Below are positions 6,030 through 62,560 of a stretch of DNA of 64,000 bases, in pieces. Every line of letters begins with the position of its first letter. The first letter of the stretch is position 1. Position numbers and translations under genes: made by a program. The stretch is from Octopus vulgaris. Its lineage: Eukaryota. The DNA lies in assembly GCA_951406725.2 (NCBI GenBank), contig OX597831.1, positions 64,108,001-64,172,000 on the forward strand, read 5' to 3'. A model generated the notes under the pieces. The model made no database searches. It was not told where the DNA came from and worked only from the letters and a program-made list of their open reading frames with translations.

Positions 6030-6517
6030 GTATAGATGTAAGTATGTACATATACTCACATACACGTACATATTCTTCGGAAGGTCAAAATTGGTAACAC
6101 AAACAGAACAGTGAAAGCAAACAGGAAGGGCTGCTAAGCATAAACGAGGTTGTGGTGGCGAACGTGTAAATCAAGCTTGGATAGGAGACAGACAAGAACA
6201 CGTCTTCCTTGTTCCAGCTACAACTGAGAGAATGAATGACGGCCGATGGCCATATGGGAGCCACGTGAGCAAGTGAGGAGGAGTGAGGGAGAGAGAGTGA
6301 CAGAGTAATAGGATAGAATAGTTGGAGAAGAGGAGGTAAAAGAATAAGAGGGAGAAAGAGAGAAAAACGAAAGAGTAAAAAGATCTATGTAGGGCGCATC
6401 AAAATTAAGATAAAACTTACTTGCAAGAGGATGCGTGGCGTTCAATTATATAATAATATAAATAATATATATATATATATATATGCATATATACATACGT
6501 ATATGTACAGACTTACA

Positions 6518-21164: not shown

Positions 21165-21168
<4 letters not shown>

Positions 21169-21498
21169 CAGTGTGGAAGGTGTTTATAAGCCATTTAAGA
21201 AACACACGAAAACCGTTAGATTCACTTCAACATTTAAATTTAATTTGTCAAAATATTTTCGTCGCTTTGAGACCGCAACCTGTTCTCTGACAAAACTTCG
21301 TGCTGCATCTGAGCAGTGAACAGGTCGTGGTCTCAAAGCGACGAAAATATTTTGACAAATTAAATTTAAATGTTGAAGTGAATCTAACGGTTTTTGTGTG
21401 TTTCTTAAATGGCTTATAAACACCTTCCAAGCTGCAATTGTTTTCGTTACAGCACACGATTTCAGATCAAGTCACTCGCTATGCAAGTACATCTCCGT

Positions 21499-21500
<2 letters not shown>
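21165..21500. mobile_element. Palindromic PLE-type element with an HHR motif on each strand (copy 1)
   Basis: ~125-bp inverted arms around ~21300; same element in opposite orientation at 61758-62093. Confidence 0.8.
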
Positions 21501-22207: not shown

Positions 22208-22480
22208 GACATCCTTTGTGCTCTATTTTTTTAATTTCATTTGATGCATATACCCTCTCACCTCTGCTACTAGCTGGCATATACAGGTGCTTACACTTAT
22301 CAAGTTTTCACCCTGAATTTATTATATATATATATATATAATAAATAAATTTATTATATATATATATAATAAATTCAGGGTGAATACTTGATAAGTGTAA
22401 GCACCTGTATATGCCAGCTAGTAGCAGAGGTGAGAGGGTATATGCATCAAATGAAATAAAAACGGAATACAAAGGATGTC

Positions 22481-47147: not shown

Positions 47148-47203
<56 letters not shown>

Positions 47204-47209
47204 AGTGTG

Positions 47210-47242
<33 letters not shown>

Positions 47243-47529
47243 AAACGGGAAATGACGCAAAATACGTATTACAGTATATGAAAACTTTTTAAAAAATTGA
47301 CACAGTTATTTAACAGAAGCAGCACACATAATGAACGCGCGTAAATAACCGAATATGTGTATGTATGTTCATGTGTTTGCATGTGTGTGCGGAATCATGG
47401 TGCGTGGTGTGTATGTGTCACCCACTTAGCATGAGAGTCTAACATCTAGGTCGAATCACAGAAGCAAACAACCCCAATCGTATTCCACGCATTAATACGC
47501 ACATACGAACATTTATATATAGACATACT

Positions 47530-47564
<35 letters not shown>

Positions 47565-47580
47565 GTATACATATCCATCT

Positions 47581-47793
47581 CTACTCTAGGCACAAGGCCC
47601 GAAATTTTGGGGGAGCAGCCGATTAGATCGACCCCAGTACAAAACTGGTACTTGATCTATCGACCACGAAAGGAGCAGACGAAATACCTATTTCTTTACT
47701 GCCAACAAGGGGCTAAACACAGAGGGGACAAAGACAGACAAACGGATTAATTCTTTTCGCCCGGCGTGCTAACGGTTCTACCAGCTCGCCGCC
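47581..47793 (-). mobile_element. SINE family A, internally deleted
   Basis: Head GGCGGCGAGCTGGTAGAACCGTTAGCACGCCGGGCG and family-A 3' end. Confidence 0.8.
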
Positions 47794-50644: not shown

Positions 50645-50815
50645 TGAGCGAAATGCTTAGCGGTATTCCGTCTGTCTTTATGTTCTGAGTTCAAATTCCA
50701 CCGAGGTCGACTTTGCCTTTCATCCTTTCGTGCTCGATAAATCAAGTACCAGTTGTGTACTGCGGTTGATCTAATCGGCTGCTCCCCCAAAATTTCGGGC
50801 CTTGTGCCTAGAGTA
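50645..50815 (+). mobile_element. SINE family A (5'-truncated)
   Basis: GCGAAATGCTTAGCGG...GAGTTCAAATTCC...GTCGACTTTGCCTTTCATCC. Confidence 0.85.
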
Positions 50816-50832
50816 GAGATGGATATGTATAC

Positions 50833-50865
<33 letters not shown>

Positions 50866-51550
50866 AGAGTATGTCTATATATAAATGTTCGTATGTGCGT
50901 ATTAATGCGTGGAATACGATTGGGGTTGTTTGCTTCTGTGATTCGACCTAGATGTTAGACTCTCATGCTAAGTGGGTGACACATACACACCACGCACCAT
51001 GATTCCGCACACACATGCAAACACATAAACATACATACACATATTCGGTTATTTACGCGCGTTCATTATGTGTGCTGCTTCTGTTAAATAACTGTGTCAA
51101 TTTTTTTAAAAGTTTTCATATACTGTAATACGTATTTTGCGTCATTTCCCGTTTACACACTCACACACACTCACACATACACACACACACGCACACACAC
51201 ACACACGCACACATACGCGCGCACATATGCTTCATGCCTGGATGTATGTGTTGGTGCGCTCGTGTTTAAGCTGACCTCCCGTTACGTTCTGTAACCACTT
51301 CGTAACTTAGCAGTTCAGCAAAAAGAAGATAGATAGAATAAGGATTAGGCTTTAAAAAAACAAAGCACTGATGTCGATTTGTTCGATTAAATCCTTCAAG
51401 GTGATGCCTCATTGGCCGCACTCCAAAACAAATAAGTAAACATTGAGTAAAACAAATAAAAGATAAATGATGATATATAAAAATATATATATATATGTAA
51501 CATGTATGTGTGTGTGTGTGTGTGTAACATATATATACATATATATATAC

Positions 51551-60420: not shown

Positions 60421-61757
60421 TTATAGTAGCATATCTCTCTAAGTTGACCTCGGCTGAGTACAACTTAAGCTGAGTATTGACTGAGTTTTAACTTCATATC
60501 AGGAATAAAATCTCGTATATAATTACAAAGTTAAAGCTATATTAAATAAATTCAGCTTTTGAAATTCAGGTAAATTTTAAATAAGCTGTCATTTTCTGAC
60601 AAATTTACCGACATAAACTACACGGAAGCTCTTAAAAATCTGATGGATAAGCAAAAGCTAAAAATGTAATTGGTAATCGGCTTAACCGCAGTAATTGTCA
60701 GCGGTCGCCATTTTTGTGATTACGTATACTCTCCTGTGTGTATTTGCATGTACGTCTATGTGCCTTTGATATACGTATGTATATGTGTATGTTTTCGATA
60801 TATGTTTGTACGTGTGCTGTATTACTGTAATATGAAAGTGTGTTTGATATCTACATTACATATATTTGTATCCATTTCTATGTTATATCCACGTGTTATT
60901 GTATATACATTTATATATGTATGTCATCTGCATATGTTTGTGTGTATGGTTGTGTTTCGCCTGTACACTTGTTTATGCGTTGACTTCGATTCGCTACGCA
61001 CCACTGTTATCCTCGATCAATTTTAACAAGTTTATATCTAATTTCATTTTGATTTATCTCGAACCTAGAACGGTAAGGTTTATTGCTTACTGAACTAGCA
61101 GTATGGCACTGCTGTAATCTAATCGGATTTTATGAATTCTATAAGAATTTGCTTAGACTTGCTTCTGATATGTGACAGCAACAGGGTGTTCCTTTAATTT
61201 GTCAACTTATATTAATTATTCTCGGCAATGTTTAATAGCAAATCAGTATTTCAGAGCAACTTCAAAATAAAACTTTGATAATAAAACCTATTCAGATTAA
61301 AAACCACATTTTATCTTGTCACTCGTATTTATTGAACAAGAAATTAGATATCTTGGTGTGGCATTTAATTATATAACTACCATTGTAGCAGCATATATTT
61401 CTGGTTTGTGTTACATGTAAGCTGAGAGATATTTGTGTGCTTAAGCAATTAGTAATATATTTGTCATTGAAAGCAGCTGATACTATAGCAGTTTACGTTA
61501 TAAATGTTAAGATCGATTTTTATAGATCCAGGATGTAATTTATTAGTTCTGATATCGAAACCAACAATGGCTCTCTCCTTGCTAATAAGTGTGAACACAA
61601 CTTTGGGGGACGGACAACAGATTTTTTTAAGATTTTGCATAGTTTTTTCTATAGATTTGTACCGCTGGAAAGGTAACTTGGCTTCATATAGAGACTAGCA
61701 CGAAGAATAGTTTCGAGAGTCCATTCAATGCATTTAAACTTTAAAATCATTACAACT

Positions 61758-62093
61758 TGCATAGCGAGTGACTTGATCTGAGATCGTGTGCTGGAACGAA
61801 GACAATTGCAGCGTGGAAGGTGTTTATAAGCCATTTAAGAAACACACAAAAACCGTTAGATTCACATCAACATTTAAATTTAATTTGTCAAAATGCTTTC
61901 CTCTCTTTGAGACCGCGACCTGTTCACTGACAAAGCTTCGAAGTTTTTTCAGCACGAAGTTTTGTCAGTGAACAGATCACAGTCTCAAAGCAACGAAAAT
62001 ACTTTGACTAATTAAATTTAAATGTTGAAGTGAATCTAACGGTTTTGTGTATTTCTTAAATGGCTTATAAACACCTTCCACGCTGCAATTGTT
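61758..62093. mobile_element. Palindromic PLE-type element with an HHR motif on each strand (copy 2)
   Basis: Inverted arms; perfect 12-bp TSD ATCATTACAACT at 61746-61757 and 62094-62105. Confidence 0.85.
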
Positions 62094-62560
62094 ATCATTA
62101 CAACTATTTTATAGATGATACAAATAATACAAGTACTTTCCTTTGAGCACAAACTTTGGGAGTTTCATAGGCAAACCTTAAGATCTTCGGAAAACTAGGA
62201 AACCGGAATAATGTATTGAATCACAACCGATTCAACATTTGCATATTCTGAGGAATAGTGGGAGCACTTGAAGTTATACATGTTACATTCGATGAAGGGC
62301 AGAACGACGTCGGAGGGAGAGAACTTTCCTTTCTCCCTAATGAAGAAAGCGTCTTCCCATGAATGATGAGGATTTTTATAAATGCTACCAATATCTACAT
62401 TTCATTGATGCTAAATACTTACTGACCATTCAACGTAAATGTACATACTCACTCACACACACACACACACATACACACACGCATATATATATATATATAT
62501 ATATACATATATATACACATATATATATACATATATATATACATACATGTGCATACATAC

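Follow-up and report, generated by a model that had tools for sequence, protein, structure and literature searches.

Two inverted insertions in the window

The window analysed here, a 64,000-nucleotide stretch of the Octopus vulgaris genome, carries two palindromic insertions, copy 1 at 21165-21498 and copy 2 at 61758-62093; both had been picked out in a preliminary description made from the sequence alone and both are confirmed at those sites. The four arms can be aligned over approximately 130 nt, and every one of them holds a G at hammerhead position 3 and a C at position 8, as that description had it; the single U4 mutation which it also reported is found in the left arm of copy 1 (U4A). 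The whole of copy 1 is an inverted pair of Penelope element (PLE) 3'-end copies set in a (TA)n microsatellite, and it is 85-90% identical to the pLTR of the full-length element L379 described below. Copy 2 is likewise an inverted pair, with a different centre and with its tail on the minus-strand arm, and is bordered by a 12-bp target-site duplication, ATCATTACAACT, at 61746-61757 and 62094-62105 (both plus strand).

The left arm of copy 1 (21165-21313, sense on the minus strand) starts at the parental CTC|AGATG and has no tail; its hammerhead motif lies at 21244-21294, with G3 at 21287, C8 at 21282, intact stems and the U4A mutation. The right arm (21314-21498, plus strand) is 5'-truncated within stem I and extends through the 60-nt tail. 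Its motif (21314-21359) has G3 at 21316, C8 at 21321, an extra G at 21323, stem II at 21324-21328/21338-21342, GAAA at 21343-21346 and the palindrome AATATT at 21346-21351, and standard numbering would place the cut between 21352 and 21353. The 5' strand of stem I was lost at the junction in this arm, leaving two contiguous pairs. Further along the same strand are the first 30 codons of a retroelement ORF (MAYKHLP..., 21409-21498), a sequence which runs on into the ORF in L349/L379 and L370/L380, and the PLE tail itself (21440-21498). In copy 2 the motifs of the left arm (61884-61934, minus strand; G3 at 61927, C8 at 61922) and of the right arm (61961-62011, plus strand; G3 at 61968, C8 at 61973) both have a broken palindrome and a decayed stem II, with 3/5 and 2/5 pairs respectively. 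No intact hammerhead remains in any of the four arms, all of which depart from the minimal type I form, and the window copies are fossils.

At 22231-22460, 700 nt from copy 1, the window also holds an unrelated hairpin element, nearly perfect and ~230 nt long, whose centre is (TA)n and which is possibly another inverted insertion or a MITE. It contains in addition an inverted repeat of 503 nt (47172-47674 and 50723-51225), 96% complementary, with 3048 nt between its arms.

The family and its parent Penelope element

Across the genome (2.8 Gb in 227 contigs) the family has a common layout consisting of a 7-bp stem I (TTTGTCA/TGACAAA, where the 4-bp GTCA/TGAC had at first been proposed), the core GUGAACA, an extra G, stem II GUCGC/GCGAC, GAAA, the palindrome AAUAUU and U17. 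The exact 20-nt core has 6323 matches compared with 0 for a reversed control, so the motif occurs far beyond chance. G3 with a base other than C8 was found in 379 matches (43 T, 41 G and 16 A by hand count of the first 100) and C8 with a base other than G3 in 185 (10 of the first 100 being C), while both positions are changed in 18, none of which is C3:G8; G3 and C8 are therefore present together in 6323 of 6905 matches and C3:G8 in none. A sample of arms picked by their 3' part only gave G:C at 3:8 in 77/86. The literal core of a minimal type I hammerhead, C3 U G A N G8 A, is thus absent from the family, CUGAAGA is not its consensus, and the proposal of a ribozyme-variant family with G3:C8 as its main state stands at the scale of the genome. 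The remaining features, namely stems I and II, G10.1-C11.1, GAAA, U16.1, H17 and a palindromic stem III, are all found as the family state, and the Watson-Crick pair at 3:8 is present as G:C here and as C:G or U:A in relatives. The expectation that standard searches would pass over the motif also holds, as descriptors for CUGANGA and UUGANAA would overlook more than 6000 motifs in this genome; some PLE families reported to have no hammerhead may therefore merit a second look.

Among the 18 double changes, eight restore a 3:8 pair (seven A:U and one U:A); about three A:U would be expected from the single-change rates, a comparison which was set aside as the copies differ in age. When subfamily majorities are compared, 0/42 stem and core positions differ as against 10/70 loop and flank positions (p=0.007, or p=0.02 once the positions fixed by the search pattern are removed), and the motif in the parent elements has likely been kept by selection. 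The sequence stretch is present in sequencing runs labelled as six organisms, no RNA run being on record among them; of four runs compared, the three deep ones show the same two boundaries, and the contigs from the runs revealed neither ends nor splice joints. In 1.05 Mb of retrieved loci, a small and biased sample, no second G3:C8 family was found.

The element is a ~210-nt piece made up of a 5' UTR and the start of an ORF. Its upstream extension (423 genome matches with at most one mismatch) leads via a microsatellite-rich 3' UTR to a GIY-YIG region, and in 15/20 long stretches a pLTR match of at least 85 nt lies downstream of that region. With the N-terminus of a metagenome homologue as query, the long elements L349/L379 and L370/L380 were located, in which the tail runs on as the beginning of the ORF. 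L379 consists of an ORF between two pLTRs, each of which contains the G3:C8 motif, and the two motifs lie 4261 nt apart; the tail of the 5' pLTR leads into the ORF, that of the 3' pLTR into (TA)n. Over 1118 nt the two pLTRs share 98.4% identity, and the inverted 5' copy, with a length of 1309 nt, shows 99.9%, the latter value indicating a very recent insertion. The ORF is broken in both L379 and L380. It encodes the RT motifs QTKGGAIG and YVDD followed, in order, by an EN region with a CX2-5CxxC linker and CCHH (TCQNNCAVC, YQIKC..GAC..SYIG, EH..QH), and its product is 40-45% identical to six longer ENA proteins. In Pfam, GIY-YIG scores 18.6 bits (E=0.0023), below the cut-off, and RVT_1 has no match in the ORF, so that the assignment to the PLEs rests on motifs, layout and homologues. 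The layout is that of an EN+ PLE, with pLTRs from a partial tandem, an inverted 5'-truncated copy and a one-sided tail which is the start of the ORF, and we regard a PLE origin of the family as almost certain. The description of the parent as Neptune-like should be read more loosely, as it is based on the EN linker and CCHH in the sequence, which are common to Neptune and Nematis, and the accompanying tree was a quick version covering relatives only. The young lineage of L379 and L380 lies 0.11 substitutions per site from the rest of the family in the EN region and keeps both G3:C8 and the two stems.

Several further elements came to light alongside the parent. EN-bearing long copies are clustered (L217-L235, mostly on C16), 16 of the best 40 matches being on one chromosome, and they carry a mixture of G3:C8 and unpaired G3·G8 motifs. 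An abundant PLE family with intact 781-aa RT-GIY-YIG frames (L037-L049, L146-L148) has a U3:A8 minimal hammerhead with the palindrome ACAUGU; it was considered as the parent and rejected, none of 20 loci matching the pLTR and its motif being its own. L034 and L138 have C3:G8 motifs with ACUCGAGU, and L180 (C5:7249346-7250449) contains a 368-codon frame with a different GIY-YIG-like C-terminal region bearing a long Asn-rich insert, which belongs to another PLE type. No relatives were found among viral contigs.

The 3:8 pair in relatives and in known hammerheads

A sister family in the same genome, 50-55% identical in amino acids over RT-EN and with many intact ORFs of ~1311 aa, has a C3:G8 motif with the same extra G. 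Its stem II is GUCAC/GUGAC as opposed to GUCGC/GCGAC in the G3:C8 family, which constitutes a compensated change between the two. The covariation of stems that was to be looked for is therefore seen in stem II between families; within the G3:C8 family no compensatory stem change was found, decay there being CpG-led except that in one subfamily an A in stem I has changed to G, with the pairing retained as U·G (11/118). The sister family (L381:1636-1670 and 6224-6258; L351-L378, on many chromosomes) is young, one pair being 99% identical; it has C at position 9, as does the homologue L337, and a non-palindromic stem III (AGAACU).

From 14 metagenome homologues the descriptor flagged L344 (C3:G8, extra G, U17) and L335 (U3:A8), and another four were read by eye (L345 and L346 with C3:G8, L337 with U3:A8 and L338 with C3:G8 and G4); the remaining eight showed no motif or had little 3' sequence. 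Other PLE families in the octopus genome have U3:A8 or C3:G8. Besides the G3:C8 family, the 3:8 pair is Watson-Crick in all seven related families in which a motif was read, and the anticipated covariation at these positions (G:C versus C:G and U:A) is borne out between them. The motif is very probably a hammerhead homologue. The Rfam hammerhead gave no match on the element at E<=10, nor any among the 150 listed of 267 matches for the whole window; as it also missed the canonical motifs of L344 and L346, this miss says nothing about the G3:C8 variant.

The motif resembles the minimal type I hammerheads described for metazoan PLEs (Cervera and de la Pena 2014, PMC4209133) in its location in the pLTR, the extra base between positions 9 and 10.1, G10.1-C11.1, the palindromic stem III, a U17 that is common there, and its occurrence as single and opposite-strand paired copies, the pairs being reported in that paper at 100-700 bp apart. 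It differs in its G3, the rows examined of their Fig. S3 having C3 or U3 and no G3, in its extra base, which is G here and H in more than 80% of those hammerheads, and in having a longer, 7-bp stem I. According to the account of PAc, a Poseidon element of Anolis (Frangieh et al. 2024, PMC11167929), the hammerhead of that element likewise sits where pLTR and ORF meet, its tail is delimited by two RT start sites within the beginning of the ORF, its targets are AT-rich and, as would apply here, its template is uncut RNA. However, G3:C8 is the wild type here and an engineered rescue mutant (C3G/G8C) in PAc, the tail is ~60 nt compared with 30-40 nt, and the start codon, which in PAc falls within the motif, is located 56 nt past the cut. 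The Neptune and Nematis EN+ PLEs, as described by Craig et al. (2021, PMC8557442), share the C-terminal GIY-YIG, CCHH, the CX2-5CxxC linker, the (TA)n bias and tandem and inverted insertions with a one-sided tail, whereas their random truncation differs from the fixed 5' end of most copies here.

A natural exchange at 3:8 has been described previously in the U3:A8 core covariants (Perreault et al. 2011, PMC3088659), which retain the pyrimidine-purine order that G3:C8 reverses. Unlike U3:A8, G3:C8 also introduces a C at the site that supplies the proposed general acid, a 2'-OH. In the literature searched, coverage of which was partial, no natural G3:C8 hammerhead was found, the G3-C8 cases there being engineered; what is added here is the copy number, an identified recent parent and the covarying relatives of a G3:C8 motif.

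Insertion, cleavage and rival readings

Insertion patterns were taken from the first 100 matches of a 3' pattern, which gave 88 loci; four were dropped as second arms of the same site, leaving 84, two of which still overlap. Half of these loci (42/84) are inverted pairs and half are single copies, so the palindrome is not the family unit, and the centres of the palindromes, parsed in 29 of 30, differ in 29/29 cases. The inverted arm is made anew at each insertion, as is evident from the differing centres and from the half of the loci that lack it, and the palindrome is likely an insertion scar and not a switch. The 3' ends form two clusters ~60 nt apart (48/126 and 71/126 arms). Targets are mostly (TA)n, and other sites have duplications of 6-13 bp, that of window copy 2 being 12 bp. 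PLE insertions are reported to include an inverted 5'-truncated copy, a one-sided tail and a bias towards microsatellites (PMC8557442).

These patterns bear directly on the model drawn from the preliminary description, in which the palindrome is an element in its own right that carries a hammerhead on each strand and the long hairpin has evolved to switch cleavage off. The palindromes do fold as one hairpin of -193 to -205 kcal/mol, which would bury the motif in read-through RNA, and the inverted pairs at half of the loci agree with such an element. However, the two arms would occur together only in host read-through RNA; since they point outwards, RNA from the element's own 5' end would hold one arm only. 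The variable centres and the unpaired half of the loci contradict a dedicated unit, the parent is a PLE with an ORF, PLE insertions typically include inverted 5'-truncated copies (PMC8557442) and all four window arms are damaged, so that we consider an evolved switch very improbable. A MITE or foldback DNA transposon with a chance likeness to a hammerhead would account for the long inverted arms, the high copy number and the TA-rich targets, but not for a one-sided 60-nt tail, variable centres, 5' truncation, single copies, target duplications of variable length and direct continuity with an RT-EN ORF; it is refuted by L379/L380 and by the lack of a fixed internal sequence between symmetric terminal inverted repeats, and its probability is negligible. 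A non-LTR retrozyme was also rejected, as head-to-tail tandem non-coding units, each with a hammerhead, would be expected, while the 84 loci are singles or inverted pairs and the sequence includes the start of an ORF. Two apparent tandems were discarded: that of L179 is a 3455-nt tandem segmental duplication (C2:171.24 Mb) with one element copy per unit, and that at L220 is a separate insertion. It is quite probable that the window copies are inverted, decayed 3' ends of a Neptune-like Penelope retrotransposon, in which the motif is predicted to cut weakly, and that the palindrome is a scar.

The 5' end of the copies is fixed, with 47/126 arms starting in the interval 35-41 of the reference, around the A of CTC|AGATG, which precedes G3 by 22 nt, and 6/126 reaching further upstream. 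At -1 the parent has C, whereas 16/27 short arms have G (p=2e-6 for an 18% background of G); the samples were partly selected, the unselected one giving 5/15. Some of these Gs can also be read from the inverted arm, and in L078 a single additional G separates the target duplication from the element. Untemplated 5' G in L1 and SVA has been attributed to copying of the cap (PMC3287187), and the fixed 5' end with its additional -1 G suggests, by analogy, a capped transcription start. Upstream of the fixed end is a look-alike of a branch-point, pyrimidine tract and AG acceptor, CTAAC...TTTCTCAG (L379:2190-2225; window 21306-21313). An origin of the 5' end at a splice junction was rejected, as one candidate donor joined to it gave no matches and the templated AG is kept, and local searches found no shared exon.

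Transcription would accordingly begin with the A of CTC|AGATG and yield a capped RNA whose first nucleotide precedes G3 by 22 nt. RT would prime at either end of the tail and copy the uncut RNA as far as its start, giving copies of ~150 or ~210 nt, and in about half of the events the cDNA may fold back or switch template at short complementary patches close to its end to create the inverted arm. A cut after UUU would, under this scheme, be real yet dispensable for a round of transposition. The (G)AGATG of the 5' start (window 21306-21310) is complementary to CATCTC at the end of the tail (window 21491-21496), and in some copies, such as L099, the tail end is joined to the 5' start at this patch.

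What PLE hammerheads do is treated in the literature as an open question (PMC8557442). In PAc each single mutant of position 3 or 8 is reported to abolish cleavage and C3G/G8C to restore it in part (PMC11167929), which agrees, to that partial extent, with the earlier statement that swapping the two bases can rescue activity. Cleavage by the PAc hammerhead requires protein and is dispensable for insertion in vitro (PMC11167929). A G3-C8 variant is reported to be less active when position 17 is C, as would be expected if positions 3 and 17 mispair (PMC3884650); the U17 of the present family would avoid such a mispair. Folding at 37 C gave a probability of at least 0.72 for stems I and II in 7/8 natural arms, and 0.02 for stem I in one mutated copy; at 18 C stem I is out-competed and drops to 0.05-0.37 in 6/7 arms of at least 150 nt. 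Stem III is an all-A/U 6-bp palindrome. Judging from the sequence, there is perhaps an even chance that the G3:C8 motif cuts measurably, and for the parent elements the prediction is weak cutting, either as a dimer or in the presence of the element's protein.

The same retroelement could instead carry a hammerhead that no longer cuts, its fold serving as a protein-binding or promoter element, or G3:C8 being a frozen accident that arose by way of an inactive G3·G8 intermediate. G3·G8 copies number ~155 (41 of the first 100 non-C8 matches), approximately 8 times the G3-to-C count, and make up 8/21 EN-bearing copies, in one mid-aged clade mixed with C8 and on several loop backgrounds; as this is the single mutant that kills cleavage in PAc, copies with a broken pair have evidently been able to spread. 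Only 3/126 arms start at the predicted cut, each explained by fold-back at stem I or by deletion, so cleavage products as templates were rejected for want of any peak of copy ends there. The C9 of the sister family and L337 indicates that this clade tolerates core damage, PAc inserts without cleavage (PMC11167929), and the motif lies 15-65 nt after the proposed start, where promoter elements could also constrain the sequence. Nevertheless, these points would also fit, by analogy, the PAc result that uncut RNA is the template. Moreover, descriptions of the 3:8 pair are confined to the active, tertiary-stabilised conformation (PMC3884650), it is Watson-Crick throughout the related families, and a lineage 0.11 substitutions per site away retains it together with both stems. 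A motif that no longer cuts is a substantial possibility, although short of even. The reading of a natural active G3:C8 hammerhead, in which a recently mobile Penelope lineage reversed the core pair, kept by selection and helped by U17, comes close to an even call but falls slightly below it.

A high-copy natural G3:C8 family would widen the core rule of the hammerhead, and the G:C, C:G, U:A and unpaired G·G versions present among related elements allow cleavage and transposition to be compared directly; the C3:G8 and U3:A8 relatives and the G3·G8 sub-lineage, all in one genome, would then amount to a natural experiment on the role of PLE hammerheads. If the capped start is real, self-starting units of 210 nt may re-amplify in the manner of SINEs. 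The inverted insertions would also leave several thousand hairpins of ~140 bp as potential double-stranded RNA in host transcripts.
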